Source: Candidatus Kaiserbacteria bacterium
GTDB taxonomy: Bacteria; Patescibacteriota; Minisyncoccia; Phycocordibacterales; Phycocordibacteraceae
Length of the DNA stretch: 64,000 nucleotides
Direction: 5' to 3'
NCBI GenBank assembly: GCA_026396715.1
Contig: JAPLWH010000014.1
Span: 8,063-72,062 of the forward strand
Each line of letters opens with the position of its first letter. Positions within the stretch are counted from its first letter, which is position 1. Positions 3,010-58,989 of the stretch are shown piece after piece. The translations under genes and the position numbers were made by a program. The notes under the pieces are model-generated. The model was not told where the DNA came from and made no database searches. It saw nothing but the letters and a program-made list of their open reading frames with translations.

Positions 3010-3010
3010 G

Positions 3011-3084
3011 TGCGCCCGGATGGATTTGAACCATCGACCAACGGATTAAAAGTCCGATGCTCTACCAGGCTGAGCTACGGGCGC
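3011..3084 (-). tRNA. tRNA-Lys (anticodon UUU)
   Basis: Cloverleaf GCGCCCG/CGGGCGC acceptor, anticodon loop CUUUUAA, T-loop TTCAAAT. No encoded CCA. Confidence 0.85.
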
Positions 3085-24592: not shown

Positions 24593-25258
24593 TTAATTAT
24601 CTAAGCGGATAGGGTTTTCGAGCTCTCCCGGATTGAAAGAGCGATAGAGGAGCTCGATGGCTTCTTCAGTGCCGAGAGGGACTGCGCGGACGCCGGTACC
24701 AGCTAAGCCGCCGATGACGAGCGAAAGACGCTGTTCAAGTTGTGCGCGATCTTCTTCGAAGGAAGTCGCCGCTGCCGCGCTTTTCGCCCCGGCGCTCTCG
24801 CGACGCAGGAAGCCGACGGCGCGCGCGGCGGAGACATGCGGCGCGAACGGTACGACAATATAGAACGACTTGGTCATGATGTTCGCCTGGTCAGTGAAGG
24901 AACGTACGAATTCGATGTATTCGCGCAGCTGTATCCGCATGAGCTCGGTCTTTTGTTCCGGCTCCTTCCCTTCTAGTAAGGCAAGGTACGGGCGCAAATC
25001 CATCTTGCGAGAGTTCACCACGATCTGTATCGAGAAATCGAGCGTGTTGAGGAAATTCTGAAAGCCGAGCGTGATCGCGTGCTGCTCGTCAGCGGATTTA
25101 AGTCCGAAGTTTATGGAAGAACAGAGGAGTACGCCACGGTACCCGCCGTCTTTGAGGATGATCGTACCGTTCCGGATCTCTTTGACCGGAACGAATTGTT
25201 GCGTCGCACCTGCGGGTTTTTCAGTCATATCAGGATTCTTTATGTGGTGTGGTGACAT
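24593..25258 (-). CDS. VirB4 N-terminal domain encoded as a separate ORF
   Basis: FVPVKEIRNGTIILKDGGYRGVLLCSSINF resembles the N-terminus of Gram-positive VirB4 homologs (PrgJ/TcpF). Its stop lies 1 nt before the ATG of the ATPase ORF. Confidence 0.6.
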   Translation of the reverse strand: MSPHHIKNPDMTEKPAGATQQFVPVKEIRNGTIILKDGGYRGVLLCSSINFGLKSADEQHAITLGFQNFLNTLDFSIQIVVNSRKMDLRPYLALLEGKEPEQKTELMRIQLREYIEFVRSFTDQANIMTKSFYIVVPFAPHVSAARAVGFLRRESAGAKSAAAATSFEEDRAQLEQRLSLVIGGLAGTGVRAVPLGTEEAIELLYRSFNPGELENPIRLDN

Positions 25259-40211: not shown

Positions 40212-41273
40212 ATGCTCGGAGATGAACAACAATACGAATTGTATTGGAAAATAACCCTAGAATACTCTGATTTTTTTGGGGAAAAATTTCGAACGTGTCT
40301 TGCAGTTATCGTTGCGTTCATTGACGAGCAAAAAGATATTCCATTTTCTTCGGAAAAATACGAAGCGCTCCAGAAGCGAGTCGAAGGAGTGTTTCCAAAA
40401 GCCGACTCCGCATCCACTCGGAAAAGTATAAATCAGTACGTCAAATTAGGATTTATTCTTCCCGAATTGATTTTCTATCATCCAGCAACTAAAGCCTTTT
40501 TGCATGAAACTAGTCTGGGGAAGAAAAAAGCCCTGCTCTCTAAAATCATCTACTCGGATTCTAGCTTTGACCGATCGGTCACGAATCAGTCCGATAAAAA
40601 AGAGATAAACTTCCTGATCAAAACGCTGCAGAAGGTCGGGACTCTATCGAAAGACGGCGTTCTTGCGCTCATGACCGTAGACGTAAGTGCAGTTCCTAAC
40701 GGGTTTTTGGATCGAGCTGGTCTAGAAGAACGTCGTCGTCTTGTTGATGCAATCAATTTCGGGGAAAGAAAATACAATCAACTGAGTTATCTTTGGTCGC
40801 TCTTAAAACAACTCGATGGCTTAGTGGTACAAGACGATACCATTTCTCTGCAGGTAGACATGGCGGTCGTCGGGGATGAAGTAGATGATCTTCCGAAGAA
40901 GCGGGATCCGTATCTGCACCAGATATACAAAAATCAGCTCAAAGTAGAGTCGAATGATCAATTTGGCAGCATCGCATGTATGCTAGAGAAGCTTGCATAC
41001 CCATCTCTAGTCGCTAGTCACATCAAGCCGTTCAGCATTTCCTCGGAAGTGGAGGCTTATGACGTAAACAACGGATTGCTTTTAAGTAAAAATATGGACT
41101 TTCTGTTCGATCAGGGATACATTTCCTTTTTGTCGGATGGCTCGATACTCATTTCAGAACGGTTACATATCGGCGTAAGAGAATATCTGAAACCATTCAC
41201 TCTTGGTAAGACATTTCTTGCGGAGGCACGACTTGCATATCTCGAATATCATCGAGCACATGTGTTTTCTTGA
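40212..41273 (+). CDS. HNH-family nuclease, candidate restriction endonuclease of the adjacent methyltransferases
   Basis: C-terminal ASHIKP...NGLLLS...FDQGYISF matches the HNH restriction-endonuclease fold. Low-GC gene next to two DNA MTases. Confidence 0.5.
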   Translation: MLGDEQQYELYWKITLEYSDFFGEKFRTCLAVIVAFIDEQKDIPFSSEKYEALQKRVEGVFPKADSASTRKSINQYVKLGFILPELIFYHPATKAFLHETSLGKKKALLSKIIYSDSSFDRSVTNQSDKKEINFLIKTLQKVGTLSKDGVLALMTVDVSAVPNGFLDRAGLEERRRLVDAINFGERKYNQLSYLWSLLKQLDGLVVQDDTISLQVDMAVVGDEVDDLPKKRDPYLHQIYKNQLKVESNDQFGSIACMLEKLAYPSLVASHIKPFSISSEVEAYDVNNGLLLSKNMDFLFDQGYISFLSDGSILISERLHIGVREYLKPFTLGKTFLAEARLAYLEYHRAHVFS

Positions 41274-42276
41274 GATTTTTCACGACAAAGAGATACTCCG
41301 TATTCCTATCCTTGTTCTCCTTGCCTGTTACCTTGTAGCGATGGGGTTTTTCAATAATCTCTATAGAACTCGCATATTTTGAAAGCAATGTATACAGCTC
41401 TTCTTTGCTTGGGAAGGAAGAGTTGTTATAGCTCATAACCCAATATTTGTATGAGGTAAGGTTCGCAAATAATCTGTCGAAGAGTTCTAGGGCAGACTTT
41501 CGATTTACGAAATTGTTTTTGAATGGCTTTAATTTCTTCGATTCTATGTATTCGTCTAACGCGCCATAAAATCCGAAATAATTATTCATCGTGCCTGAAT
41601 ACGGGGGGTCGAGATATATCACGTCTGCCTGTACCGTTCCGAGTAGATCAAAAATATCCCTGTTGTACACACGGTTATCCTTTCCGTTGTCAAAGACCGC
41701 TTGATTATATGCGGTTAGATTTGCGAGCACATGCTCTCGGAATGAAAGATTGTGATATGCGCGTTTTCTCCCATACGTTTTATAGCTGTGAACTTCATCG
41801 CGAAGCTTTTTTATCGTATTCCAATCAATAGTAAATCTGGAGTACGGCATTTTTCGTATCATGGCGCGCCGGAGTAAGCTCAGTGCCAATGCTTTTTTAT
41901 ACGTCGAGCCGAGTTTCTCCACATTTTTCCGGTATCGATCAAGCTCCATGCATTCATTGGGAAAAAAATAAACATTCGCGTAGTTTTTATACATAAAACC
42001 TTTTACTGGTTTCCCCGCGAAGAGGATAGTCAGGTCTGATTCTTCCAAGGTTTCCCGCTTATTTTCTATAAGCGCAGTAGCCAACTGAGCATTAATTTTC
42101 AGAATGTCGTTGCTGATGACGCGCATCCCTCTTTTTTTCGCTTCGTATCCGACGGAACTGCTTCCGGCGAAAGCGTCGAATACGGACTCTGCAGCTATCG
42201 GGAATAGATCGCAAATCCAAGAAGCAAGCTTTTCTTTATTCCCGATGAAGTTTATTTTTGGAGGTTTATTTTTCAT
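41197..42276 (-). CDS. N6-adenine DNA methyltransferase, D12/Dam class
   Basis: Motif I FAGSSSVG and motif IV DPPY (VIYLDPPYSG). Confidence 0.8.
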   Translation of the reverse strand: MKNKPPKINFIGNKEKLASWICDLFPIAAESVFDAFAGSSSVGYEAKKRGMRVISNDILKINAQLATALIENKRETLEESDLTILFAGKPVKGFMYKNYANVYFFPNECMELDRYRKNVEKLGSTYKKALALSLLRRAMIRKMPYSRFTIDWNTIKKLRDEVHSYKTYGRKRAYHNLSFREHVLANLTAYNQAVFDNGKDNRVYNRDIFDLLGTVQADVIYLDPPYSGTMNNYFGFYGALDEYIESKKLKPFKNNFVNRKSALELFDRLFANLTSYKYWVMSYNNSSFPSKEELYTLLSKYASSIEIIEKPHRYKVTGKENKDRNTEYLFVVKNLKKTHVLDDIRDMQVVPPQEMSYQE

Positions 42277-43300
42277 TGCGAATTACTTTCTTCAGTCTCT
42301 GGGCAATCATTTTTGCGAGTAGGGGAGGTACTGCGTTTCCGACCTGTTGCTGCTGAGAAATCTTTGAACCGGTAAACACAAATGAGTCGGGAAATGATTG
42401 AATGCGAGCCAGTTCGCGGACGGTCAGCGCTCTATTTTGCGAGTAATGAAATATCTTCCGCATGTCTCCGGTAACGCATACGGAGGGCTCAGTACTAGTA
42501 TAACGAATGTATTTTCTACTATCCCCGGTTAGCGGTCTGAGCGGAAGAGGAATTTGAGACCGGTCTCCTCCGTCTTTTACATACGCCATTTTTTTGAGCA
42601 TCTGAGGCGTATGTCTCATGGCTTCATGATTGGGGATAACTGAAGAAGCTCCTACTTCCAGGGTCGGAAGGTCATGTATCGCATCCCAAACGGTTTTGAT
42701 GCGGTTCGTTTTCTCCTTTGAGAATGCAAAAGGTAGATCAGATTTAGTGCCGACGAAAATAACTCGTCTTCTGGATTGCGGTACGTCATACTCTGCTGCG
42801 TTTAAGATCGTACAAGAGACGGTGTACCCAAGGTTTGAAAAGCACTCGATTATTTCGGCGCGCGTCTGACCTTTGTTGTGGCTGTACAGGCGAGCGACGT
42901 TTTCCATAACGAAGTATTCCGGCTCTATTATTTTTATCACACGAGCAAATTCGCGGAATAAACGATTACGAGGATCAGCTATAAATTTCCGACCGATGCT
43001 GCCAGCCATGCTAAAGCCCTGACAGGGCGGACCTCCTATGACGACATCCACGTGTTGTTTTTTCAGTATTTTCTTTATTTCTTTTGCGTCTATCTTTGAA
43101 ATGTCAGATTGGATAAGTGTATGATTAGGGAAATTAGCGCGATACGTTTTACAAAAGTTCGGCTCGTTGTCTAAGGAGAAAATATTTTTGAACCCGGCTT
43201 TTTCAAATCCGAGCGCTAAGCCGCCGGCACCGCAGAAAAGATCAATATAGGTCAGATCTGCTTGTTTTTTCTGAGCCATACTATTGCCTGAGTATAGCAA
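42266..43300 (-). CDS. dcm: C-5 cytosine-specific DNA methyltransferase
   Basis: Motif I LFCGAGGLALGF, motif IV GGPPCQGFS, ENV motif. Confidence 0.9.
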   Translation of the reverse strand: MLYSGNSMAQKKQADLTYIDLFCGAGGLALGFEKAGFKNIFSLDNEPNFCKTYRANFPNHTLIQSDISKIDAKEIKKILKKQHVDVVIGGPPCQGFSMAGSIGRKFIADPRNRLFREFARVIKIIEPEYFVMENVARLYSHNKGQTRAEIIECFSNLGYTVSCTILNAAEYDVPQSRRRVIFVGTKSDLPFAFSKEKTNRIKTVWDAIHDLPTLEVGASSVIPNHEAMRHTPQMLKKMAYVKDGGDRSQIPLPLRPLTGDSRKYIRYTSTEPSVCVTGDMRKIFHYSQNRALTVRELARIQSFPDSFVFTGSKISQQQQVGNAVPPLLAKMIAQRLKKVIRNEK

Positions 43301-46249: not shown

Positions 46250-46266
46250 TCCGGGCATGAATGCAT

Positions 46267-46303
46267 GACGAAACGCGCCGGCGAAGCCGGCGCGTTTCGT
46301 TTT
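46267..46303. terminator. 34-nt palindromic hairpin (gacgaaacgcgccggc-gaa-gccggcgcgtttcgt) followed by a T-run; left bracket of the GHKL gene
   Basis: 16-bp perfect stem. Acts as the clpP terminator. A near-identical copy lies at 47313-47346. Confidence 0.7.
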
Positions 46304-46315
46304 AACCGAGATCTT

Positions 46316-47398
46316 TTATTTACCGACTCTTTCAACCATAAATCGGACTGCTTCGTCCATGTTTATCGGTTGAATTTCAATATTCGGATGCTTTTCTTTA
46401 AAGACCCTAAAAACCTCATCAGCAAATGCTTGTCCGATTGTCGGCACCTTGTCGAAATCAAGAATTATAGATTCGAATTTATCCAGCCCTTCGAGAATGC
46501 GCCGTGCTTGGGATCTAGATACATGTACCCCATCACCAGAAGCATACAGCTTCACTTTTATCTCAGTTTTGTTAAATGCGAATTCTGTACCGACACTGAA
46601 TTTTCTGAAGATGGCGCTGAGATGTCGTGTTGAATTGACATCAATAGAAAATCTTACCCATGTGCCTCTTTTCAGAGCTGGGAGAGTCTTATAGAACACC
46701 TCGTGCGTCTTATTGTTAATTGTTAAAACATATCCATAACTTTCAAGTGTAAACACATCAGCCGCTTTTGATGTAAAAAAAATACCTTGACCAGAATGAG
46801 ATTTCGGCATGGTGGTGGTCTTCCCTTTCAGCAAGTCCTGCATGGCTTCTAACTCAGTCTTCAATCCCTTTTCTTTCATAATATTGCGGAAAACCCCAAT
46901 CCCAAAGTCGTTGACGATGAAGTGCAATTTTCGGTTTTGAACCGATACTTCAACTTCTACGTATTTTGATTGCGAATGTTCAATTGCATTGTTAAGAATT
47001 TCGGAGAACGCATAATTAAGAATACTTCTGACATTCTCGGAAAGGCGTTTAACTGGAGGATATTGGTTTTGAATATCTTCATAAATTTCGTGCTCTTGCA
47101 GACCATTGTTTTTTAATCGTTTAGAAATCCGTACAGGGAATGCCCCAACTTCGTCGGCTGACTCTGGCAATAGATAGTAAGCTCTGTTCGTTGAACCAAC
47201 CTTGACCAGTTTATCCTTGAATACAAGATCGTTGACCAAGATAACGGCATACTGCCTCGAGATTCCGAATGAAATTGTCGATAGTAAACCGCATATAAGG
47301 TTATTCCAGCGTGACGAAACGCGCCGGCTTCGCCGGCGCGTTTCGTTTGTGTTAGAGTCAGCCCGTACCGCAAGACCGCCCGCCCGACTCGACTGCAC
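46316..47398 (-). CDS. GHKL-type ATPase/kinase-like domain fused to a C-terminal STAS-like (DUF4325-like) domain
   Basis: N-box ILNNAIEHS and G1 box DFGIGV of the HATPase_c fold. C-terminal region resembles anti-sigma-antagonist STAS domains. N-terminal extent uncertain (the track uses a GTG start inside the palindrome). Confidence 0.55.
   Translation of the reverse strand: MQSSRAGGLAVRADSNTNETRRRSRRVSSRWNNLICGLLSTISFGISRQYAVILVNDLVFKDKLVKVGSTNRAYYLLPESADEVGAFPVRISKRLKNNGLQEHEIYEDIQNQYPPVKRLSENVRSILNYAFSEILNNAIEHSQSKYVEVEVSVQNRKLHFIVNDFGIGVFRNIMKEKGLKTELEAMQDLLKGKTTTMPKSHSGQGIFFTSKAADVFTLESYGYVLTINNKTHEVFYKTLPALKRGTWVRFSIDVNSTRHLSAIFRKFSVGTEFAFNKTEIKVKLYASGDGVHVSRSQARRILEGLDKFESIILDFDKVPTIGQAFADEVFRVFKEKHPNIEIQPINMDEAVRFMVERVGK
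47313..47346. repeat. second copy of the 34-nt palindromic hairpin (loop flipped); right bracket of the GHKL gene
   Basis: Stem identical to 46267-46300. The loop is ttc rather than gaa. Confidence 0.7.
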
Positions 47399-49359: not shown

Positions 49360-49430
49360 TCCCAACTTACCTCAACGCGGGAACACCGAGGTCTGACTTC
49401 GGCGTTCCCGCGTTCGTTTGGTAGTAATAA

Positions 49431-49462
49431 AAAACCACCAAAGAATCTTTGGTGGTGCGGTC
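49431..49462 (-). terminator. Rho-independent terminator of the sigma-r4-like gene
   Basis: ccaccaaag-aatc-tttggtgg stem followed by a T-run on the minus strand. Confidence 0.6.
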
Positions 49463-49499: not shown

Positions 49500-49802
49500 T
49501 CACGGTCGTTTTTCGAAATACGGCAGGAGCTGCCTCTTTCCGCCGAACTTCGCCAAATGAGACATACCCATCCTTAGGCTTCTGTGCACCGCGTTAGGAG
49601 TAACTTCCCATTCTTCTGCAAGCTCGCGTGGAGTCTTTCCGTCTAAGTATACTCCGATAAAGGCGGCTTTCTGCGCGCGCGGCATTTCCTCAAAAAGCAC
49701 CCTCAGAAGCTTTCGGAGCTCCATCTGTTCCAGCTTCTCGTCTGGCAGCATGGCGTTGTCGATCGCTTCGTTTCTGGTCGAAGCCAATAACGACTTCTTC
49801 AT
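49500..49802 (-). CDS. stand-alone sigma-70 region 4-like HTH protein (100 aa)
   Basis: MPRAQKAAFIGVYLDGKTPRELAEEWEVTPNAVHRSLRMGMSHL fits the sigma70_r4_2 pattern. SD AGGAAGGGG upstream. Confidence 0.55.
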   Translation of the reverse strand: MKKSLLASTRNEAIDNAMLPDEKLEQMELRKLLRVLFEEMPRAQKAAFIGVYLDGKTPRELAEEWEVTPNAVHRSLRMGMSHLAKFGGKRQLLPYFEKRP

Positions 49803-49827
49803 GGGATTCCCCTTCCTGTCTTGTTTG

Positions 49828-49920
49828 ATTGAAAGAACAATTGGGATAGAAACTATCCCACCAAAACTTTCAAACGAGTTGAAGACTTTGGTAGGAGCCG
49901 AAGCAGGGTGCTTCGGCTTC
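49828..49920. repeat. family 1A structured repeat, copy 1 (three hairpins + TGTTCTTTCAAT tail on the minus strand)
   Basis: About 90% identical to copies at 51108-51203 and 53316-53405 and to a partial copy at 51985-52042. Hairpin loops vary while stems are conserved. Confidence 0.8.
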
Positions 49921-49929
49921 GAAGTATTT

Positions 49930-50172
49930 TCATGGTTCTTTCGCCTCCTCTTTTTGCTGTTCTCTTGCGATTACAGCGGATATGGATTTATGTCGGAAGT
50001 ATTCGCGAATGCCAAATTCCAACGCACATGGCTGGCAGATCATGGCGGGTTGGTTATTCGCGAACTGGCCGGTTTTTTTCATCCTGTCAGCAATTTCTTT
50101 TTGTCCGCAGGCCCAGCACTCGTGAAGTTCCGGGGCACCCACTGCTGCATCGACACTGGTGTTGCTGCTCAT
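49930..50172 (-). CDS. small Zn-ribbon protein
   Basis: CWAC...CQPC (two CxxC pairs). SD GGAGGTG 7 nt upstream of the ATG. Confidence 0.5.
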   Translation of the reverse strand: MSSNTSVDAAVGAPELHECWACGQKEIADRMKKTGQFANNQPAMICQPCALEFGIREYFRHKSISAVIAREQQKEEAKEP

Positions 50173-50187
50173 GAGAGACACCTCCAA

Positions 50188-50604
50188 TCAAAAGATTTTC
50201 CCGATTCTCACTGGATTCTTACTCGCCGCCACTACTATTTCCCCGCTCATTCGCTCCAGAGCCATGTCGATCCCAAGTATTCTTGAGACCTCTTCCTTTT
50301 GTGTCCTGTAACAACAACAAGAACAAGAAAGAAGTATCGGACGTGTCCCGAGATGAAAGAGGCCTTCAACTAATGGGCGAATTGTACGCGCGAACGCTTT
50401 TGGTTCAACTAGTGAATACCTGCTTATTTCCCAGTCGTCACGGCCAGTAAATAGGAAGGCAAAAACGAAGGAATTGCGCTCGATTCTCCATTCCTGGGTA
50501 AGTAGTGTCGCTGCCTTGAATTTAGAGAGATTGAGAAATTTTTCTCGAGCAATTTGCACAGCATACTTTGGGTATCTGTTTTTTTCTGGTATCCTCGGAT
50601 ACAT
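50188..50604 (-). CDS. hypothetical Cys-rich protein (138 aa)
   Basis: Contains SCSCCCY. SD GGAGGAATT. Preceded by hairpin + tgttctttcaa module 1D at 50624-50660. Confidence 0.45.
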   Translation of the reverse strand: MYPRIPEKNRYPKYAVQIAREKFLNLSKFKAATLLTQEWRIERNSFVFAFLFTGRDDWEISRYSLVEPKAFARTIRPLVEGLFHLGTRPILLSCSCCCYRTQKEEVSRILGIDMALERMSGEIVVAASKNPVRIGKIF

Positions 50605-50825
50605 AATTCCTCCGTATATTTTTTGTTGAAAGAACATTCGAGCGACTAATTTCGCTCTTCTGAAAAACCATAACGGCTATAGTTTCTTAGAAGAACGGAG
50701 GAGGTGCATAGAGATTAAATCTCGTACACCTCCCCCTTGAAGGTGGAGTTCTAGAAGAATCGGATGATAGCAATCCTTCTCTCCTTGGCGTTTTTGACTG
50801 GACTGCTTTAGGCTTCCTTCAAAGC

Positions 50826-51089
50826 CTAGCGGAGCTTGTCAGATTCCGCTACCAGTAAGTCGTTGGCATCGGGGAAAACCATTCCATTCTCGATTCTGTA
50901 CATCTTACCGGGGTTTCTATATCTGAGTACCTCTTCCTTATTGGCGATGAACGCTGGCACAGATTTGAACCGGACGCACATCTTTTCTACGAACTCCGTA
51001 AGTGGCACAGGGCTGTCGTTTTTGAAAATGATTTTAGCAATGTAATGCTGAACACCACTATCATCTAGATTCGTGACAAGATACTGCAT
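50826..51089 (-). CDS. hypothetical protein (88 aa)
   Basis: Start MQYLVTNLDD with SD GGAGGTG. Track ORF 50826-51266 is over-extended through the repeat. Confidence 0.45.
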   Translation of the reverse strand: MQYLVTNLDDSGVQHYIAKIIFKNDSPVPLTEFVEKMCVRFKSVPAFIANKEEVLRYRNPGKMYRIENGMVFPDANDLLVAESDKLR

Positions 51090-51107
51090 GGAGCACCTCC
51101 TTATTTC

Positions 51108-51203
51108 GATTGAAAGAACATTTGGGATAGAAACTATCCCACCAAAACTTTCAAACGAGTTGAAAACTTTGGTGGGAGCCGAAGCGGTGTTTTGCTTCGG
51201 CTG
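51108..51203. repeat. family 1A structured repeat, copy 2
   Basis: See copy 1. Confidence 0.8.
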
Positions 51204-51216
51204 GATAAGGTAGGCG

Positions 51217-51549
51217 CTACCACACGGTAGCGAGCGGGAAGAATGCCGCCGGGCGTGGCACCGCACCCCTCCTCTCGGTCAGAATCCCCGCGAGAAAAGC
51301 TTTGGCGATCGCCTCGGCAATGCTGCCTCGGATATCAGCCTCGGCGACCCACGTGATATCAGGAAACTTTCCGATAATCATCACGTTTCTCACTTGCTCG
51401 GGAAAAATTCCGAGAGTCGAGAACATATCCCGAATTGTCTGTCCCGGGAGGACCACAATTGGATCATTGTCTTTCTCGAGTTCGACGACAACGACACTTG
51501 CAGTTCCATCAACTCCGTCCAGAAATTCGTTCAATTCCTTTTCTCTCAT
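51217..51549 (-). CDS. hypothetical protein (110 aa)
   Basis: Start MREKELNEF with SD AAGGTG. Preceded by family 1B leader copy 1. Confidence 0.45.
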   Translation of the reverse strand: MREKELNEFLDGVDGTASVVVVELEKDNDPIVVLPGQTIRDMFSTLGIFPEQVRNVMIIGKFPDITWVAEADIRGSIAEAIAKAFLAGILTERRGAVPRPAAFFPLATVW

Positions 51550-51568
51550 GGCGCACCTTCTTTCTTTA

Positions 51569-51738
51569 GTTAAAAGAACATAAGCGGCACAATTACCGCT
51601 TTCTTGAAGAAATCATTGCTGACGTCCTCGAGAAAACGGCGGAGCGGGAATGTCTATATGACACCCATTGCTCCGCCATCCCGCGCCTCATCGACATGGG
51701 CGTCGAGCTCCCCGGAACTTCCTCGGGGTATTACGCCT
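51569..51738. repeat. family 1B repeat, copy 1 (about 170 nt)
   Basis: About 90% identical to 52927-53127 over the shared part. Contains the aagcgg-N8-ccgctt hairpin plus the TGTTCTTTCAA tail on the minus strand. Confidence 0.75.
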
Positions 51739-51984
51739 ATTTTTACGACCTAGGATGGTCGGACGATTCACGGCAAGAACTTTTTTCGTAGATAGCGCCA
51801 TGCTGGCGCTATCTACGCGCTGGAGAAACGCCTGCACTGAATATCAGTGCGCTATTGTCTTGCGATCGACAATACTTTCTATCAAGTGATCCGTGTAGAA
51901 AAGATCTTCCGTCAGGAAATCTTTTCTTTCACAGCCCATTTTTGACAGTCTCATAAATTTAATTATGTGACGGCGTATCTCCCG

Positions 51985-52042
51985 CCAAAACTTTCAAACG
52001 AGTTGAAAACTTTGGTAGGAGCCGAAGCAGGATGCTTCGGCT
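51985..52042. repeat. family 1A repeat, partial copy 3 (hairpins 1-2 only)
   Basis: Identical distal half. Proximal hairpin 3 and the tail are missing. Confidence 0.7.
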
Positions 52043-52056
52043 TAGGGGTAGGTAGA

Positions 52057-52572
52057 TTATGAAGACATGAGGCGACTTAAAAGTCGTCCCCAGTCTTTCG
52101 CTTGCGCCACCGTGGGGTCCCCTTCTTCGAAAGGAGCATGGGCGATCACGAGGCGGGTTTCGTCAATCCGGAAGACTGGCTGACTCCCATCCTCGTGCCA
52201 ATAGGCAGGACAGATGAGATCCAGCGCGGCGGTCAGTGGGCCGGAGTGATGATTAGCATCGGTAATGATACCGACGTATTTCACTCCGCACTGCACCGCC
52301 CGAAGCGCAAGGATGAATCCATACGGGACTTCTCCCTCGCCCACTTGAGAACATGATGCGGTTTTTTCTGCCGGCATGTTGAGATCCAGCAGGGCCGCAT
52401 CGAACGGGACTGATGCGAGATTTTGATATTCACGCGCCGCCCCCTCGTTCCCAAGCAGGAGTTCCGAAGCGATAACGAACGACTTCACGATTGTGACGTC
52501 GTGTTGCTCCGTCAATTGTTTCTTGGCCGCCTCACGATGTTTTTTGTTATCCTCAACGACGAGAATTCTCAC
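52057..52572 (-). CDS. stand-alone response-regulator receiver (REC) domain protein with C-terminal extension
   Basis: MRILVVEDN..., phospho-acceptor context ALLDLNMP, CheY-like spacing. About 60-aa extension. Confidence 0.6.
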   Translation of the reverse strand: MRILVVEDNKKHREAAKKQLTEQHDVTIVKSFVIASELLLGNEGAAREYQNLASVPFDAALLDLNMPAEKTASCSQVGEGEVPYGFILALRAVQCGVKYVGIITDANHHSGPLTAALDLICPAYWHEDGSQPVFRIDETRLVIAHAPFEEGDPTVAQAKDWGRLLSRLMSS

Positions 52573-52907
52573 TTTACCTCTCCTTTATTGACTTGTAGGT
52601 TAAGTGCACTTGCAAACTCCCCAATGAGGAAAGGGAGTCGCAAGTAATTTTGCACATTCGTGGGCTGTCTTGAGAACCCGAAGCCAAAAACTTTCGTGTT
52701 CAGCTCAAGGCTCTCCAGTTTCTCGATGGTCCGTGCGCCGTCCTTAATATCGCAGTTAACCAGAACAAAATCAGGCTTTTCCTGACTCACTTTGGCGACT
52801 GCTTCATATGGCCGCACAGAACTTACCGAAAGGCCACACTGATTGGCAATCATAGAGAAGGGCTTCTCCATGGCACGATTTTCTTCCGTCACAATCATCA
52901 GATTCAT
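52569..52907 (-). CDS. stand-alone receiver (REC)-like domain protein
   Basis: MNLMIVTEEN..., PDFVLVNCDIKDG (acidic pocket). SD GGAGG 8 nt upstream. Confidence 0.5.
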   Translation of the reverse strand: MNLMIVTEENRAMEKPFSMIANQCGLSVSSVRPYEAVAKVSQEKPDFVLVNCDIKDGARTIEKLESLELNTKVFGFGFSRQPTNVQNYLRLPFLIGEFASALNLQVNKGEVK

Positions 52908-52926
52908 TACCATTACCTCCTATTTT

Positions 52927-53127
52927 GATTGAAAGAACATAAGCGGCACAATTACCGCTTTCTTGAAGAAATCATTTCTGACGTCCTCGAGAAAACGGCG
53001 GAGCGGGACTGTCTGTATGACACCCATTGCTCCGTCATCGCGCGCATCCTTCAAGGGATGCCCACACGATCCAGACATGACAGCTTGCTGGTTGAGCCCT
53101 CCGGAACTTCCCCGGAGTATTACGCCT
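52927..53127. repeat. family 1B repeat, copy 2 (about 200 nt)
   Basis: See copy 1. Carries a 45-nt insertion relative to copy 1. Confidence 0.75.
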
Positions 53128-53299
53128 CACTTAACCACTGAGGATAGCGGCTACTATAATTGCCGCAGTCTGGACAGGTACCATCCGTCCGCTCCTCCTT
53201 TGGTACCCAATTGTCCTCGTGGCTGCCGCATTTCTGGCAGTACGGACAATCCACAATTTCAATGTCGCCGTCCTTGTGGGTAATAAATAGTATTGGCAT
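53120..53299 (-). CDS. candidate 59-aa Zn-ribbon protein (MPILFITHKDGDIEIVDCPYCQKCGSHEDNWVPKEERTDGTCPDCGNY...)
   Basis: Two CxxC pairs. SD GGAGGG 6-7 nt upstream. Preceded by family 1A copy 4. Not in the ORF track because it is under 60 aa. Frame derived by hand. Confidence 0.4.
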   Translation of the reverse strand: MPILFITHKDGDIEIVDCPYCQKCGSHEDNWVPKEERTDGTCPDCGNYSSRYPQWLSEA

Positions 53300-53315
53300 A
53301 AACCCTCCTTAATGG

Positions 53316-53405
53316 TTTGAAAGAACAAGTGGGATAGAATCTATCCCACCAAAACTTTCAAACGAGTTGAAAACTTTGGTAGGAGCCGAAGCAGGATGCT
53401 TCGGC
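53316..53405. repeat. family 1A structured repeat, copy 4
   Basis: See copy 1. The hairpin 3 loop differs (aat vs aaa). Confidence 0.8.
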
Positions 53406-53426
53406 TATGTAATTAAGGTAGGAATA

Positions 53427-53912
53427 TCAGATGCGGTATTGTTGCGAAAGCTCTCGACGGAAAAGTTCTTTTTCCGTGAGCTCGCGGCCGAACATGTTTT
53501 TTGTGGTGCATGTACAGTCCGGCTTGAGTTCGTTGGCGGGACGCTTAAACTTTTTAAGCGCGAATTCAAGCATTGCGGTTTTCTCCGCGCCGTTGATCCT
53601 CATCAGGTCGTCAATCAAATCGAACCATCCACACAAAAAACATGGTTCGTGAAGATGTTCATCCCTGACAGTCAATATTGTCTTTGATCGCTCGGTATAG
53701 TTGCTGTTCTCGTTCTCGTTCACGGTAGAAACTACCAAAAACAGCGAGCCAGCATAACGCATGCCATCAGGGAAGATTCCGGAATCGTGGGCGAATACCC
53801 ACCGATTTGCGTACCCTCCACCATCGCCTCTCTCATACCAAAAGAGTGGGCGTTTTTCAATTTGGCCTTTCAGATACTCAAGCCGCTCCAATGTCTGATT
53901 CTTATCCATCAC
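53427..53912 (-). CDS. hypothetical protein (161 aa)
   Basis: SD GGAGGAGG upstream of a GTG/ATG start. No recognisable domain. Preceded by module 1C at 53935-53985. Confidence 0.45.
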   Translation of the reverse strand: MMDKNQTLERLEYLKGQIEKRPLFWYERGDGGGYANRWVFAHDSGIFPDGMRYAGSLFLVVSTVNENENSNYTERSKTILTVRDEHLHEPCFLCGWFDLIDDLMRINGAEKTAMLEFALKKFKRPANELKPDCTCTTKNMFGRELTEKELFRRELSQQYRI

Positions 53913-54232
53913 GTACCTCCTCCTTGTTGGTTTCGATTAATGAAAGAACTTAGGATTGCTTTCACAATCCCTATGCCAAGCGGAAATGGTTGAGGGGTAC
54001 GGCATTATATGCGCCGAATTGTCCCGCTCCAGAGCCACTTCGCGCTCAGCTAGGAATAACGAACTTAACTATTCAAATGTCAGTGATCACAGTTAGGACG
54101 TTCTCCAAACTGATATCGATACAATACCACCGACGGCATTGACAGTACAAAATATTCTTGTCTTTAGAGTATTTATGACAAATAAGGCATATAAAATATG
54201 GATTTTCTTATGTTTATTTATGTCTAAAAAAC

Positions 54233-54262
54233 TTGACAGAAAAGCTGCTTTTGCTACTCTCT
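54233..54262 (+). promoter_or_regulatory. sigma70-like promoter (TTGACA-16 nt-TACTCT) giving a near-leaderless transcript for the TrmB-like gene
   Basis: Consensus -35 and a -10-like element 5-7 nt before the ATG, in an AT-rich intergenic region. Confidence 0.45.
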
Positions 54263-54266
54263 CAGT

Positions 54267-55079
54267 ATGAATACATCAGAAAAGCCTGCGCTGCTTGGGC
54301 TCTCAAAAAAGGAAGAAAAAGTGCTCTCGTCTCTTCAGGACGGCGTCGATACTCCCCTTTCGCTGGCGCGCGCAACCGGCGTGTCGCGTACGGCTATATA
54401 CGCAATACTCGGGAATCTTAAAAAACGCGGTTTGGCGCATACGCGTATCGTCGGCGGGAAGAAGTACTGGAGTCTTGCTCCCGAACGCGAAATCGAGGAA
54501 GTAGTATATGAGGCAAAGCGCGCACTTCTTAAGATTCCGGAGGGGCGCGAAGAAGTGTATGGTCTTTCCGATTCAACCGTTATTATCCACCGCGGGCAGG
54601 ATTCAATACGAAAAGTATTTGGCGAATTGCTCTTCGTGCATAAGAACGAGCGGTTCTACGGCCTTGTAGGCGATAGTGCAGCAGCTAATTGGAACAAAAT
54701 GTTTAGCCTTCAAGAGACAAATCGCTTCAATCGCGCCCTCAAGAGAAATAACATAATCGCTGAGACGATTACTCAAGATGGATTGCTCGAACGACAGGCG
54801 AGGGAGCTGGGAGTCTCGTGGGCTAAAGATTTTGAAGGGCGGACGACGAGGGTAAATGTGATTGATGGCGAGTATTTTGCTCATGGCGCACAGATATTTA
54901 TCTTCAAGCAGTCCATATATCTGATGGCTCTCGGAGAAGATCTGGTCATCGAGATTCGCAACTCGGAAATTCAGAAGATGCTACTTACCTTTTTCAAGTT
55001 TATGCAGGACAATTCGCGCGTGATTGATGCGAACGCACTTTTGCGATCGATTATTGCCGAAATTGAGGACAAAAAATAA
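54267..55079 (+). CDS. TrmB-like winged-helix transcriptional regulator
   Basis: N-terminal wHTH (LSKKEEKVLSSLQDGVDTPLSLARATGVSRTAIYAILGNLKKRGL) typical of TrmB/MarR-like regulators. C-terminal domain unknown. Confidence 0.5.
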   Translation: MNTSEKPALLGLSKKEEKVLSSLQDGVDTPLSLARATGVSRTAIYAILGNLKKRGLAHTRIVGGKKYWSLAPEREIEEVVYEAKRALLKIPEGREEVYGLSDSTVIIHRGQDSIRKVFGELLFVHKNERFYGLVGDSAAANWNKMFSLQETNRFNRALKRNNIIAETITQDGLLERQARELGVSWAKDFEGRTTRVNVIDGEYFAHGAQIFIFKQSIYLMALGEDLVIEIRNSEIQKMLLTFFKFMQDNSRVIDANALLRSIIAEIEDKK

Positions 55080-55546: not shown

Positions 55547-55561
55547 AAGCCCTGTCATTTG

Positions 55562-55633
55562 TGCGGGCGGCGGGAGTCGAACCCGCGCTGATTGCTTGGA
55601 AGGCAACCGTCATAGCCGTTAGACCACGCCCGC
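55562..55633 (-). tRNA. tRNA-Gly (anticodon UCC)
   Basis: GCGGGCG acceptor, anticodon loop CUUCCAA, T-loop TTCGACT. Confidence 0.85.
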
Positions 55634-56326
55634 TTTCTCAATTTCCGATAAAATCGCCTCATTCCAGAGCTGGATTTTCCGGAAAAAGACTACTCCATAT
55701 TCTTTTCTCCCTCCACTCTGAACAGTCATTTGTACGGTACCGTAAGGAAGTTTGCGTCGTTTCTTAGCTTTCTTATCAGTGCGACTGTCAATTTGGTGTT
55801 TCTGGAATTGGGATACTGGAATGCTAGTGGTACGGGACCAAAATTGCAAACTTTGCTTCACGTCGCTGTCTGGATAGAGATGTAGGCGAAGTCGTAACTG
55901 TCTCTTCTCCACACCAAGCATTCTAAACCATGCAATGGTGGCTTGGATGATGCGTGGATCTGAATTTATCATACGAACCTGACTATTCGTTTTGCTTCCC
56001 TCCCCAAGATAGAGGCCCAGACCAAACACAAAAAGGTCTCTCCGGCTCATTTTTCCAATGTCTTTGGCGGCTGTTTTTCTGATTTCCTGAATTGATTTTT
56101 GTCGCAGCTCAGCCCGGCGCGCACCGGCTGCGGCCCGTGCTTTCCCAAAGGAATCTATCGTTTCTTTGTTTGGAGCGTACGGTGTTTCCGTGAGCCATCC
56201 GCTCAATGTGCTTTTAGAAAGTCCGGTCTTAGCCGAAATGTACGTATAAGAAAAGCCACTTTTTCGTAATGCCAAAGCTTTTTCTCGAATAGACAGGTTG
56301 TGCATGTGTAGATTATATATCTGCAC
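55619..56326 (-). CDS. HTH + LAGLIDADG-like protein (paralog 2)
   Basis: HTH (YTYISAKTGLSKSTLSGW) and LGLYLGEGSK motif. The 3' end overlaps the tRNA-Gly(UCC) 5' end by about 15 nt. Confidence 0.55.
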   Translation of the reverse strand: MQIYNLHMHNLSIREKALALRKSGFSYTYISAKTGLSKSTLSGWLTETPYAPNKETIDSFGKARAAAGARRAELRQKSIQEIRKTAAKDIGKMSRRDLFVFGLGLYLGEGSKTNSQVRMINSDPRIIQATIAWFRMLGVEKRQLRLRLHLYPDSDVKQSLQFWSRTTSIPVSQFQKHQIDSRTDKKAKKRRKLPYGTVQMTVQSGGRKEYGVVFFRKIQLWNEAILSEIEKAGVV

Positions 56327-58036: not shown

Positions 58037-58231
58037 GGCTTTTTAAAATATGGCTTATTCTATCAGTATACTTTAGGACCAGATAAGAATTCACTTAATG
58101 AACAGGTGTCCTTTATCCCCAGTATGAACAGGTTTATCCCCTTATCATACAGAACGAAAAGACATGCAAAAACGGCTCAATCGAGCCGTTTTTGCATGTA
58201 GGAACCATCTTGAAGTCAAATACTGATTTTG

Positions 58232-58302
58232 TGCGGGCAGGGAGAATCGGACTCCCGTCTCGTCCTTGGCAAGGACGCGTTCTACCACTGAACCATGCCC
58301 GC
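58232..58302 (-). tRNA. tRNA-Gly (anticodon GCC)
   Basis: GCGGGCA acceptor, anticodon loop UUGCCAA, T-loop TCCGATT. Confidence 0.85.
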
Positions 58303-58308
58303 AGACCG

Positions 58309-58989
58309 CTACATCTTCGCATAATAAGCTTCATTCATCAATTCCTTGGGTAACAGTTTCAACCATTCGAGCATCTTTACTTTCAAATAAGTGCTTGAAA
58401 TACCAATCATGCACACCCCGTATTTAATTCGGCGTGTTTTATGGCGCCCCACTATGATAGTACTCTTGGTAAATTGCGACAGATTGACGCTTGATTCATG
58501 GGACCAGTATTTCCGGCAGTCTTCATCGCTAAGATCTGGATATATGAGCACGTGCGCCCGTATCTTTTCTTCAGGGATTCTGCAAGCGTTTTTGAGGAAA
58601 AACACGTATAAACGAATTAAGTCAGGGTCGGTATTGGTAATTGCGGTTGAATATTTAGTTAATTTGTCTCCCTCTCCCCAGTAAAGCATCAGGCCAGCGA
58701 TGAAAAGAGGATTGTATTTCATTTCATTAAATTCAACCCTTGCCTCTTCGCGTGCCTCCTCATACACTTTCTTCAAGTGCTGACCTCGTACTCTATTGAG
58801 ATCAATGAGTCTAGTTGTATGCTGGTCTTGAGCTTGAGATGCGAGTCTTTCCTTAATCTGTTTCGACCAATCAACTGTGCTGAACCATCCTGAAAGAGTT
58901 CCTTTGGGTATTTTAAGAGCTTTACGGATCTCCAGATAACTCTTTCCTCTTCGGCGAAGAACGAAAGCTTCTTGCTTATCTTTCCGCAT
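58309..58989 (-). CDS. HTH + LAGLIDADG-like protein (paralog 3)
   Basis: HTH (YLEIRKALKIPKGTLSGW) and AGLMLYWGEGDK motif. Its stop lies 6 nt before the tRNA-Gly(GCC) 5' end. Confidence 0.55.
   Translation of the reverse strand: MRKDKQEAFVLRRRGKSYLEIRKALKIPKGTLSGWFSTVDWSKQIKERLASQAQDQHTTRLIDLNRVRGQHLKKVYEEAREEARVEFNEMKYNPLFIAGLMLYWGEGDKLTKYSTAITNTDPDLIRLYVFFLKNACRIPEEKIRAHVLIYPDLSDEDCRKYWSHESSVNLSQFTKSTIIVGRHKTRRIKYGVCMIGISSTYLKVKMLEWLKLLPKELMNEAYYAKM

Follow-up and report, generated by a model that had tools for sequence, protein, structure and literature searches.

The window analysed here, a 64-kb stretch of DNA from a Candidatus Kaiserbacteria contig, contains a highly variable array of nine co-directional small genes on the minus strand (49500..53912, about 4.5 kb). 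The genes and the features at the two ends of the array are the following.

54267..55079, plus strand, divergent TrmB-like wHTH regulator, conserved border of the variable slot
54121..54150, minus strand, candidate array promoter (-35 TTGTAC 54150-54145, 18-nt spacer, -10 TATTGT 54126-54121)
53912-53427, minus strand, gene A
53299-53120, minus strand, gene B, zinc ribbon
52913-52569, minus strand, gene C, weak receiver-like signal
52572-52057, minus strand, gene D, weak receiver-like signal
51549-51217, minus strand, gene E
51089-50826, minus strand, gene F
50604-50188, minus strand, gene G
50172-49930, minus strand, gene H, zinc ribbon
49802-49500, minus strand, gene I, sigma-70 region 4
49427..49456, minus strand, canonical intrinsic terminator at the array end (ACCACCAAAGAUUCUUUGGUGGU + UUUUUAUU, with a clean U-run)

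Among the nine genes, only I, C, D, B and H gave any family signal. The TrmB-like regulator has a 100% match in NCBI, a protein from a Candidatus Kaiserbacteria MAG. The putative promoter lies within a block, TTTTTACTGTCAATGCC-N8-GGTATAGTG, that is conserved in eight Kaiserbacteria genomes; its role is predicted from these hexamers.

Several spacers separating these genes carry a three-hairpin element of about 95 nt, named 1A. Three copies are complete and one is a half copy; all of them are on the minus strand. This confirms the 3.5 copies described in the initial annotation. The covariance model scores are given below in bits.

53316..53406, minus strand, 1A copy 4, from gene A (stop 53427) to gene B (start 53299), 113 bits; hairpin 1 53406-53384, hairpin 2 53379-53349, hairpin 3 53348-53330, boxA-like motif 53327-53317
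51985..52042, minus strand, 1A half copy (hairpins 1 and 2 only), 14 nt past the gene D stop, 78 bits
51108..51203, minus strand, 1A copy 2, from gene E (stop 51217) to gene F (start 51089), 106 bits; hairpin 1 51203-51178, extended hairpin 2 51177-51137, hairpin 3 51141-51123, boxA-like motif 51120-51110
49828..49920, minus strand, 1A copy 1, from gene H (stop 49930) to gene I (start 49802), 108 bits; hairpin 1 49918-49896, hairpin 2 49891-49861, hairpin 3 49860-49842, boxA-like motif UGUUCUUUCAA 49839-49829, SD 49817-49809

A repeat search of the window recovered them as a single four-member family (49820-49918, 51101-51199, 51944-52042 and 53308-53406) with 72-92% ungapped identity to the reference copy, and the copies were 96.7-98.9% identical to their consensus across the aligned parts in BLAST. 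The half copy is followed by an unrelated small hairpin and has neither the boxA-like motif nor a gene start. Apart from 1A, the long repeats of the window are limited to a second spacer family (D2, here 1B) and a 40-nt palindrome pair, and the genes on either side of the 1A copies are mutually unrelated; the copies are therefore not a segmental duplication. Two plus-strand ORFs through the repeat (49750-50286 and 53367-53687) had been regarded as artefacts and are best treated so, because they are antisense to SD-bearing minus-strand genes, one of which has homologues in other contigs.

Read on the minus strand from its 5' end, every full copy consists of hairpin 1 (AGCCGAAGC-loop-GCUUCGGCU) and CCUA, hairpin 2 (CCAAAGUYUUCAA-CUCGU-UUGAAAGUUUUGG) and hairpin 3 (UGGGAUAG-WUU-CUAUCCCA), then 2 nt, UGUUCUUUCAA, 6-11 nt, an SD and ATG. 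Hairpin 1 begins 10-20 nt past each upstream stop codon. 1A is a composite of two parts. Hairpins 1 and 2 come after the stop codon and can occur alone, and hairpin 3 with UGUUCUUUCAA is one version of a leader found at seven genes of the array. Its folding energy was far below that of shuffled sequences on both strands (z of -4.9 to -7.0, none of 200 shuffles being equally stable). Two invariant G.U pairs of hairpin 2 on the minus strand are C.A on the plus strand, and hairpin 2 is an uninterrupted 17-bp helix on the minus strand only. This asymmetry favours an element acting at the RNA level. In the minimum-energy fold of copy 2, the 17-bp extended hairpin 2 was formed and hairpin 3 was open, whereas copies 1 and 4 formed hairpin 3.

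The initial annotation had proposed that the copies vary in their loops only and that this indicates selection on the structure. The differences do fall mostly in the loops of hairpins 1 and 3 and in the linkers, but the hairpin-2 loop is invariant. The argument from loop variation is weak on the window copies because their stems and most of their loops are simply identical; taken alone, these copies have almost no covariation, the single compensatory pair being in hairpin 1. That hairpins 2 and 3 are nearly identical across copies can be put down to recent spread as well as to function. Selection on structure is better indicated by the different hairpin sequences in other leaders and genomes. 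No sigma-70-like promoter was found inside 1A and an Rfam scan gave no match. A riboswitch is disfavoured by the lack of an Rfam match, by perfect hairpins without conserved junctions and by the unrelated genes downstream. A small RNA gene fits poorly with an element that lacks its own promoter and terminator and whose full copies are each fused to an SD and a start codon. The best fit among the earlier options is a cis-regulatory protein-binding RNA leader, and the evidence supports 1A as a structured, strand-specific cis element in leader or intercistronic position.

The hairpin and UGUUCUUUCAA part of 1A is common to four further leaders of the same array that are not 1A.

53943..53971, minus strand, gene A leader, hairpin GGAUUGUGAAAGCAAUCC + UAA + GUUCUUUCAU, SD 14 nt downstream
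52929..52960, minus strand, gene C leader, the 3' end of spacer 1B copy 2 (whole spacer about 53125-52924), hairpin AAGCGGUAAUUGUGCCGCUU + A + UGUUCUUUCAA
51570..51601, minus strand, gene E leader, the 3' end of spacer 1B copy 1 (whole spacer about 51790-51565), hairpin AAGCGGUAAUUGUGCCGCUU + A + UGUUCUUUUAA
50626..50657, minus strand, gene G leader, hairpin GAGCGAAAUUAGUCGCUC + GAA + UGUUCUUUCAA; an orthologous copy in L012 has a loop change

Thus seven of the nine array genes are preceded by a hairpin, 0-4 nt, GUUCUUU, 6-14 nt, an SD and a start codon. The 64-kb window contains 12 other GTTCTTT sites, and none of them is arranged in this way. With at most one mismatch, TGTTCTTTCAA occurred six times, always on the minus strand and within 49829-53327, and GYTCTTTNAA occurred nine times against 1.6 expected, six of the nine being in the array. 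The motif itself is invariant, whereas the hairpin before it has at least six unrelated sequences (stems GGGAUAG/CUAUCCC, AAGCGG/CCGCUU, GAGCG/CGCUC, GGAUUG/CAAUCC and GAGGCA/UGCUC, and the extended hairpin 2 in L016 and L028). The composite nature of 1A and this boxB-boxA-like 3' part, common to the four other leaders, had been missed in the earlier reading.

Relatives of 1A are restricted to homologous arrays in groundwater Kaiserbacteria-like contigs; outside such arrays, none was found in the window, in about 190 kb of related loci or in the public collections scanned, and phage collections gave no match. Further copies, and covariation, do exist in these other contigs, so that the refuting test proposed in the initial annotation does not overturn it. 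Two diverged relatives from other Kaiserbacteria, L016 (21.6 bits) and L028, retained hairpin 1 with entirely different stems. Hairpin 2 is retained as well, with compensatory base changes and an outer extension that covaries, so that the hairpins covary at the level of the family. On the 3' side of hairpin 2 they have 2 nt, GUUCUUU or GAUCUUU, and then the SD; some related leaders carry GTTCTTTAAT. Cassettes have been exchanged at the spacers: their order varies among genomes, with breakpoints within the repeats. Homology between genomes ends at varying repeat points, in the hairpin-1 loop or past hairpin 2, as expected for homologous and not site-specific recombination. At the position of the half copy, the related contig L015 has a full 1A and an extra gene (K). 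The K cassettes of L004 and L015 are the same in sequence (100% identity) but have different neighbours. What comes after an H-type cassette is I, K, T or nothing. Between the window and L015, proteins C, D and E are only 61-64% identical, while the 1A core is identical.

BoxA is the RNA sequence through which the Nus anti-termination factors of bacteria are loaded. We know of no Nus sites as densely placed as these putative ones, seven within 4.5 kb and each next to an SD. The array motif closely resembles the published gamma-proteobacterial boxA consensus GYTCTTTAANA (PMC5725501), but its position 8 is usually C and not A, and the L028 motif has A at position 2 in place of Y. The E. coli rrn leader, read directly, is GCCGCUgagaaaaagcgaAGCGGC + AC + UGCUCUUUAACAA, and the rrn boxA of Taylorella is TGTTCTTTAACA (PMC2666751). 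In rrn operons, a non-conserved boxB stem-loop precedes a conserved boxA (PMC2666751, PMC10250234). The array leaders have the same order and spacing as rrn boxB-boxA and lambda nut sites (NusB-NusE(S10)/NusA/NusG), i.e. a non-conserved stem-loop, about 2 nt and the conserved, single-stranded U-rich box UGYUCUUU.AA, and likewise lie on the sense strand downstream of the promoter and are repeated within the operon, as in rrn, which has one copy in the leader and one in the spacer. However, they precede protein-coding ORFan genes at 6-14 nt from each SD, and the array has seven copies in 4.5 kb, no boxC and no rRNA context; rRNA was found neither in the window nor in any related locus examined. 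BoxA has also been predicted before non-ribosomal genes, including one for a ParE-like toxin, and the E. coli suhB boxA in the 5'-UTR, 6 nt from the SD, represses translation through Nus factors and is involved in Rho termination (PMC5725501). The distance to the SD of a protein gene is similar in the array (6-14 nt), but suhB has a single site autoregulating a Nus factor, whereas 1A recurs as a module in front of unrelated cargo genes, and its host is a CPR bacterium.

Our leading explanation, which we hold tentatively, is that 1A is a sense-strand intercistronic RNA module with a putative Nus-factor (boxA) site that doubles as homology for cassette shuffling. The array would be transcribed as one polycistronic minus-strand RNA from the conserved promoter beside the divergent trmB-like gene to the canonical terminator. 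The 5' half of 1A (the GC-rich hairpin 1 and the long A/U-rich hairpin 2) would belong to the 3' end of the upstream cassette, which it probably stabilises or helps to process. The 3' half (hairpin 3, 2 nt and UGUUCUUUCAA, 6-14 nt before the SD) would be a site of the boxB-boxA type. The nascent boxA-like RNA may recruit the host NusB-S10(NusE) heterodimer, with NusA and NusG, to RNA polymerase and thereby re-arm anti-termination before each cassette. Because the site adjoins the SD, it may also gate the access of the 30S subunit, as the boxA of E. coli suhB does. The same core of about 60 nt between unrelated cassettes provides homology for the recombination by which cassettes are added, deleted and permuted. 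That Nus factors bind, that anti-termination or translation is controlled, and what hairpins 1 and 2 do are inferences.

The motif is pyrimidine-rich, pairs weakly with the SD in several folds and is placed after a hairpin as the U-tract of a terminator would be, so that simpler readings than boxA exist. One of them, which we consider unlikely, is a leaky intrinsic terminator or attenuator (a hairpin and a U-rich tract) before each cassette, with graded expression along the array. A terminator scan flagged all hairpin + UGUUCUUU sites; over 5.5 kb it counted 20 terminator-like sites, where shuffled sequences gave 5.8. However, the tract UGUUCUUUCAA is interrupted, its invariant G and C positions would be needless in a plain U-tract, and the genuine terminator of the array (49456-49427) has a clean U-run. 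The attenuator version, in which the extended hairpin 2 (CCUACC...GGUGGG) of 1A overlaps the 5' arm of hairpin 3 as an anti-terminator, agrees with the alternative folds of copy 2 and of copies 1 and 4, but is similarly doubtful. Stopping before every ORF would silence a promoterless array unless anti-termination exists, and this leads back to a boxA-type system. It is also unlikely, to about the same degree, that the spacer is an mRNA processing or stabilising element with its conserved 11-mer bound by a non-Nus RNA-binding protein. Hairpin 1 could improbably block 3' exonucleases and the long hairpin 2 be cut by a double-strand RNase; as binders, the host RNase Y or S1 or an array-encoded zinc-ribbon or HTH protein are equally doubtful candidates. 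The position of hairpin 1 at 10-20 nt past the stops, the ability of hairpins 1 and 2 to stand alone after a gene, the GC-rich hairpin with which 1B also opens directly past a stop, and RNase Y encoded 0.5 kb from the array all agree with this, and an array-specific motif fits an array-specific factor. Yet the array proteins have no recognisable RNA-binding fold, the 11-mer matches no known RNase site, and the specific boxA match would be a coincidence.

Less probable still is that the pyrimidine motif is a fourU-like anti-SD that pairs with the downstream AAGGAGG and throttles the translation of each cassette. UUCUUU was paired with the SD in the minimum-energy folds of copy 2, 1B copy 2, L016 and L028, but the pairing is short and rich in G.U, the distance and sequence of the SD vary without co-variation of the motif, the pairing does not include the conserved G and CAA, and the expected sequence would be CCUCC. 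A cassette-boundary element at the DNA level, either a recombination site like those of integrons or an operator bound by the TrmB-like or sigma-region-4 protein, has in our opinion a slightly smaller chance again. The variable cassette order and the layout (a conserved divergent gene, a common promoter, promoterless ORFan cassettes and structured repeats) are integron-like. However, no integrase adjoins the array, the closest tyrosine recombinase being about 10 kb off, RYYYAAC/GTTRRRY core sites are absent, and 1A has three separate hairpins and not one imperfect hairpin; the G.U asymmetry of hairpin 2 and the varying breakpoints speak for RNA and for homologous recombination. A selfish miniature repeat (MITE- or REP-like) without host function is very improbable. 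The copies are highly identical and are found in several related genomes, but terminal inverted repeats and target-site duplications are lacking, copies are confined to this array type and never dispersed, their orientation and SD distance are always the same, and the structure is conserved in diverged relatives. The MITE considered in the initial annotation is thus not supported.

Parallels in organization are also found in other repeats. PeSLs (promoter-early stem-loops) are mobile regulatory cassettes of T4-type phages (PMC2839356, PMC4122927). Like 1A, they are composite regulatory repeats, short and conserved, that separate the small ORFan genes of a hyperplastic region, and insertions, deletions and replacements between relatives end in them. 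However, a PeSL consists of a sigma-70 promoter and a terminator and belongs to phages, whereas 1A has no promoter-like hexamers and its array lies in a bacterial chromosome. Integrons (attC) likewise have a common promoter by a conserved divergent gene that serves promoterless, mostly unknown small genes separated by structured repeats of 60-140 nt that are similar within an array. The 1A array differs from them in the lack of IntI, of R and L boxes and of a single bulged hairpin, and in breakpoints that are not at one fixed nucleotide. Hairpin 1 resembles REP/BIME stabilisers as a GC-rich hairpin straight after stop codons within operons, but REPs are genome-wide and associated with the RAYT transposase, whereas 1A is present at one locus and is fused to a leader.

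The repeat noticed by the initial annotation is real. A repeat search of the window returned 1A, a spacer of about 95 nt, as a single family of four members (49820-49918, 51101-51199, 51944-52042 and 53308-53406), and in the alignment the four sites were 96.7-98.9% identical to their consensus. Three are full copies (1, 2 and 4) and one is a half copy, with the following layout.

Full copies, minus strand: hairpin 1, AGCCGAAGC-loop-GCUUCGGCU, then a 4-nt linker
Full copies, minus strand: hairpin 2, 13 bp with a CUCGU loop
Full copies, minus strand: hairpin 3, UGGGAUAG-WUU-CUAUCCCA
Full copies, minus strand: 3' end, 2 nt, UGUUCUUUCAA, 6-11 nt, SD and start codon
52042-51985, minus strand: half copy, hairpins 1 and 2 and nothing else of 1A

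All the copies folded much more stably than shuffled sequences (z -4.9 to -7.0). On the minus strand hairpin 2 has two invariant G.U pairs, folding of both strands gave an unbroken 17-bp helix on the minus strand only, and the orientation of 1A relative to the genes is constant; together these features point to 1A acting as RNA, from the sense strand. With the full copies fused to the SD and start codon, 1A is best regarded as a cis-acting structured leader, one of the options first offered for it, rather than as a small RNA gene, and the plus-strand ORFs that run through it are, as had been supposed, antisense artefacts. The argument that variation confined to the loops reveals selection on structure was weak by itself, because the near-identical copies provide a single covarying pair (G-C to A-U, hairpin 1), hairpins 2 and 3 being invariant; it gained its support from the family-level comparison described below. 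Alternative folds were also found: in copy 2 an extended hairpin 2 overlaps hairpin 3, and in copies 1 and 4 UUUGAAAG of hairpin 2 pairs with CUUUCAAA of the downstream motif. As a speculation, such modelled folds could modulate the accessibility of the box.

The 1A copies sit in a 4.5-kb array of nine co-directional minus-strand genes, A to I (53912-49500), closed by a canonical terminator (49456-49427, minus strand). The motif TGTTCTTTCAA, with at most one mismatch, occurs at six sites in the window; every one is on the minus strand, within 49829-53327. A seventh variant precedes gene A. Seven array genes thereby share one leader anatomy: a hairpin that ends 0-4 nt before GUUCUUU, an SD 6-14 nt after it, and the start codon. 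None of the 12 other GTTCTTT sites in the 64-kb window had this anatomy. The hairpin itself is entirely different from one leader to the next.

Leader hairpin of 1A: GGGAUAG/CUAUCCC
Leader hairpin of 1B, the second spacer family of the array: AAGCGG/CCGCUU
Leader hairpin of gene G: GAGCG/CGCUC
Leader hairpin of gene A: GGAUUG/CAAUCC
Leader hairpin of the related loci L010 and L014: GAGGCA/UGCUC

This fixed position of a hairpin of varying sequence is the strongest evidence here that the folded single strand matters. Hairpins 1 and 2 also stand alone, lacking both hairpin 3 and the motif: the window half copy and two related contigs (L012 125-205 and L004 2292-2205) show them immediately behind a stop codon, and no gene follows. 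Because the 3' third of 1A, a hairpin and the motif, is not limited to 1A, and hairpins 1 and 2 are found alone, 1A as read from these sequences is a composite, in which a 3' module (hairpins 1 and 2) is fused to a 5' leader module (hairpin 3 and the motif). The 1B spacers, of 125-210 nt, open with a conserved 5' hairpin, CUCCGGGGAAGUUCCGGAG, immediately downstream of the stop codon and close with a conserved 3' segment that ends with the hairpin AAGCGG/CCGCUU and UGUUCUUUCAA; the stretch between the two varies (folding z = -4.25). They alternate with 1A at the cassette joints and were located at these sites.

51565-51790, minus strand: 1B in the window
52924-53125, minus strand: 1B in the window
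1-300 of L004: 1B
1440-1745 of L015, a Hainich groundwater contig: 1B

Between the half copy and the next 1B lie 280 nt with a 35-codon ORF, MRLSKMGCERKDFLTEDLFYTDHLIESIVDRKTIAH, without SD (51860-51966, minus strand) and several hairpins. This stretch may be the remnant of a lost cassette.

Outside the window, a scan of the genome collection returned one true 1A copy, in the 7-kb MAG contig L004, and five chance matches, while a metagenome scan returned six Hainich groundwater contigs with 1A. Two of these (L011 and L013) are the window locus itself at 98.5-99.3% identity, and the remaining ones are related arrays. A covariance model built from 12 copies regained all 12 at 103-115 bits, with 51-78 bits for the half copies, and added one diverged relative, from another Kaiserbacteria genome (L016 7175-7268, 21.6 bits); a second, in L028, was spotted by eye. 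In these relatives hairpin 1 reads GGGGGAG/CUCCCCC or GGCAAGC/GCUUGCC, compared to GCCGAAGC/GCUUCGGC in 1A. The outline of hairpin 2 is retained, with compensatory changes (U-A to C-G, A-U to G-C and G.U to G-C), and its outer extension covaries, with CUCUUUAU/UAGAGAG in the relatives and CCUACC/GGUGGG in 1A. Just 2 nt separate the extended hairpin 2 from GUUCUUU in L016 or GAUCUUU in L028, and the SD and ATG come next. The genes on either side of the window copies are mutually unrelated and no longer duplication surrounds them, so 1A is not a segmental duplication; with copies in other contigs and compensatory changes as well, the refutation initially proposed for the element does not apply. 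We consider the leader of hairpin, GUUCUUU and SD to be a well-defined RNA motif, backed by family-level covariation and without a match in Rfam release 15, and this holds even if Nus binding is wrong. A literature search gave no described equivalent in Kaiserbacteria or Patescibacteria. L004 (CAYIPF010000035.1) is labelled Candidatus Saccharibacteria but shares the TrmB-like gene, a YraN gene and both 1A and 1B spacers, and L015 carries one of its cassettes at 100% identity. The explanation is either a mislabelled bin or movement of cassettes across CPR lineages.

The window is a chromosome segment with NusA, pyrophosphatase, ClpP, RNase Y, HU and tRNAs, and its TrmB-like protein matches an NCBI entry of a Candidatus Kaiserbacteria MAG at 100% identity. 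The array proteins are essentially ORFans; a sigma-70 region 4 (I), weak receiver-like domains (C and D) and zinc ribbons (B and H) were detectable, and sequence searches of Pfam, PHROGs, PADLOC, NCBIfam and PDB gave no further cargo function. Entirely different cargo fills the slot between RNase Y and the TrmB-like gene in eight other Kaiserbacteria genomes: toxin-antitoxin genes in some, one to three small, unrelated genes in the others. Among the Kaiserbacteria genomes compared, the divergent intergenic region keeps a promoter-like block, TTTTTACTGTCAATGCC-N8-GGTATAGTG, which for the window array reads as follows.

54150-54145: -35 of the promoter-like site, TTGTAC, from sequence reading
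54126-54121: -10 of the promoter-like site, TATTGT, from sequence reading

No promoter-like hexamer pair was found within any 1A copy. TTGAAA and TTCAAC, tried by hand as -35 of a sigma-70 promoter, had no usable -10; an ECF-type -35 on the antisense strand of 1A lacked a matching -10, and gene I has no region 2. In the simplest reading, a single promoter would serve an array that varies and has no promoters of its own. Two blocks, each with CTGTCAA, are conserved in eight genomes (the window, L016, L018, L019, L025, L027, L028 and L029) in the divergent intergenic region that separates the slot from the trmB-like gene (window 54040-54275): TTCTGTCAAGTTTTTTAGACATA, which overlaps the trmB -35, and TTTTTACTGTCAATGCC. 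They may be operators of the TrmB-like regulator, controlling both promoters.

The slot was variable in every Kaiserbacteria genome examined, and the order of cassettes varies among genomes with 1A and 1B as the joints. In the orders below, primed letters are cassettes related to those of the window, K, M and T are further cassettes, and a dot means no spacer.

Window: A-1A-B-1B-C.D-(half 1A ... 1B)-E-1A-F-...-G.H-1A-I
L015: 1B-C'.D'-1A-K-1B-E'-1A-M
L004: H'-1A-K-1B-C'
L014: H''-1A-T-1B

L004 and L015 share cassette K at 100% identity, with different neighbours on both sides. After an H-type cassette comes I, K, T or nothing. At the position of the full 1A and K of L015, the window has only the half copy. 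The breakpoints of homology lie at differing points within the repeats, either in the hairpin-1 loop or after hairpin 2, and the shuffling therefore fits homologous recombination between repeats. Proteins C, D and E of the window and L015 are just 61-64% identical and the 1A core of about 60 nt is identical. This extreme identity reflects, at least in part, a recent spread among co-occurring populations, so that core identity alone is not evidence for sequence-level selection.

Recombination between repeats has been described for the PeSL cassettes of T4-type phages (PMC2839356, PMC4122927). Like PeSL, the repeats in the window, L004, L012, L014 and L015 lie on both sides of small ORFan genes, within a hypervariable region, and contain the endpoints of indels; unlike PeSL, the 1A copies have no strong sigma-70-type promoter. 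No counterpart turned up in viral, phage and plasmid collections: three pattern scans of viral collections returned nothing real, and neither tblastn of genes A and D against phages nor blastn of 1A against plasmids gave a match, so a phage or plasmid origin was rejected. An integron was rejected as well. IntI and attI do not adjoin the array, which is bordered by the TrmB-like gene and RNase Y, and the sole recombinase found is an Xer-like gene from 63685 onwards. As to attC core sites (RYYYAAC ... GTTRRRY), the element ends AGCCGAAGC and GTTCTTTCAA are not complementary, 1A folds into three independent hairpins, and the GTTRRRY core is ruled out because GTTCTTT breaks RRR. Site-specific integron recombination thus lacks an integrase, attC core sites and a single bulged hairpin.

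The motif resembles boxA, the RNA signal of the Nus factors. Its GUUCUUU core is invariant in all seven window leaders and in L004, L012, L014, L015 and L016 (GAUCUUU in L028), and agrees with the boxA core GYUCUUU. The gamma-proteobacterial boxA consensus is GYTCTTTAANA (PMC5725501). The array 11-mer matches this consensus, which may not be that of the host, at 9 of 11 positions; at position 8, where the consensus has A, these leaders have C, U, A or G, AA follows in six of the seven leaders, and some related leaders read GTTCTTTAAT. The boxA consensus, position 8 included, differs among phyla: that of Firmicutes and Mollicutes is GUUCUUUGAAAA, and a Gram-positive variant is GTTCTTTGAAAA, for which a literature search gave PCR-primer uses only. 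GYTCTTTNAA occurs nine times in the window compared to 1.6 expected, and six of these sites are within the array. A further site tried, GCTCTTTCAA at 24633-24642 (minus strand), is inside a coding region without hairpin or SD and is probably due to chance; a 606-aa gene (22771-24591) starts 42 nt downstream of it.

At least six unrelated hairpin sequences, all ending 0-4 nt before the motif, take the place of a boxB-like stem-loop. In an E. coli rrn leader, which we read directly, AC separates the boxB hairpin GCCGCUgagaaaaagcgaAGCGGC from boxA UGCUCUUUAACAA, so the hairpin ends 2 nt before boxA. In the rrn spacers of Taylorella, TGTTCTTTAACA lies downstream of a boxB stem-loop without apparent sequence conservation (PMC2666751). 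The rrn order is boxB, boxA and boxC, and boxA is necessary and sufficient for recruitment of the complex (PMC10250234). The array leaders are alike in layout, with a hairpin of any sequence and then the box (UGUUCUUUCAA), in the core GYUCUUU and in the AA that follows. The boxA of E. coli suhB is 6 nt from the SD, and bound NusB/E blocks 30S loading there and lays the transcript open to Rho (PMC5725501); the array motif is likewise close to the SD, at 6-14 nt. Rfam detected no rRNA in the window, the extensions at both ends or 11 related loci, but tRNAs only.

Several other readings of the leader have to be weighed. The hairpin and motif could be leaky intrinsic terminators or attenuators, and a terminator consensus scan does flag these sites; the tract, however, is interrupted and sequence-specific, unlike that of the terminator closing the array. 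They could also form a processing or stabilising element bound by another protein, or the motif could act as a weak anti-SD. We prefer boxA because no other reading would account at once for three features: the particular sequence of the motif, a hairpin of any sequence placed 0-4 nt before it, and an SD close by.

A further reading is a recombination or operator site acting at the DNA level; the G.U pairs and the minus-only helix speak for RNA. Another is a selfish repeat, which would account for the near-identical copies. The MITE proposed initially had to be abandoned, since the alignment shows no TIR or TSD and all copies share one orientation and one locus. A riboswitch or other described cis-regulatory RNA was rejected too, given the perfect stems and unrelated downstream genes; Rfam over the 1A copies gave nothing at the gathering threshold or E<=10 beyond chance-level matches.

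On the boxA reading, each cassette leader would be a loading site for Nus factors. It might keep RNA polymerase termination-resistant through a long, foreign and weakly translated array, or it might gate translation cassette by cassette. We propose such a Nus-factor mechanism with moderate confidence, at slightly less than even odds. 1A would then combine, in a CPR bacterium, a boxA-type leader with a PeSL-like shuffling joint, a new combination of known kinds. A wider proposal is tentative and may well prove wrong: Kaiserbacteria might keep an integrase-less, integron-like platform, with a conserved promoter by the trmB-like gene and changing ORFan cassettes, each expressed whatever its neighbours through a portable boxB-boxA Nus-loading leader, and the repeated leaders would serve as the substrate of recombination. 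If the boxA reading is true, Nus regulation would no longer be a matter of rRNA and a few proteobacterial genes but would include accessory cassettes of the Candidate Phyla Radiation, in which, to our knowledge, gene regulation is almost wholly undescribed. It would also offer a concrete and testable cis element, about 30 nt long, for gene expression in these uncultured bacteria, and a counterpart on a bacterial chromosome of the phage PeSL principle, in which regulatory modules double as joints for shuffling ORFans.

Further features were noted in the window. Two GC-rich perfect palindromes of 40 nt (46263-46302 and 47309-47348, GCRTGACGAAACGCGCCGGC..GCCGGCGCGTTTCGTTT), 90% identical to each other, bracket a lower-GC minus-strand gene of 360 aa (46316-47398) inserted between clpP and the RNase Y gene. 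The gene content at this place differs in other Kaiserbacteria, which suggests a second variable slot with bidirectional terminator-like hairpins on either side. Just upstream of nusA, two adjacent minus-strand genes resembling DNA methyltransferases of the restriction-modification type occupy 41197-43300, with lower GC. Three paralogous HTH and LAGLIDADG-like proteins are encoded on the minus strand at 2176-3009, 55619-56326 and 58309-58989, and each gene abuts or overlaps a tRNA gene (tRNA-Lys 3010-3084, tRNA-Gly 55561-55633 and tRNA-Gly 58231-58302, respectively).
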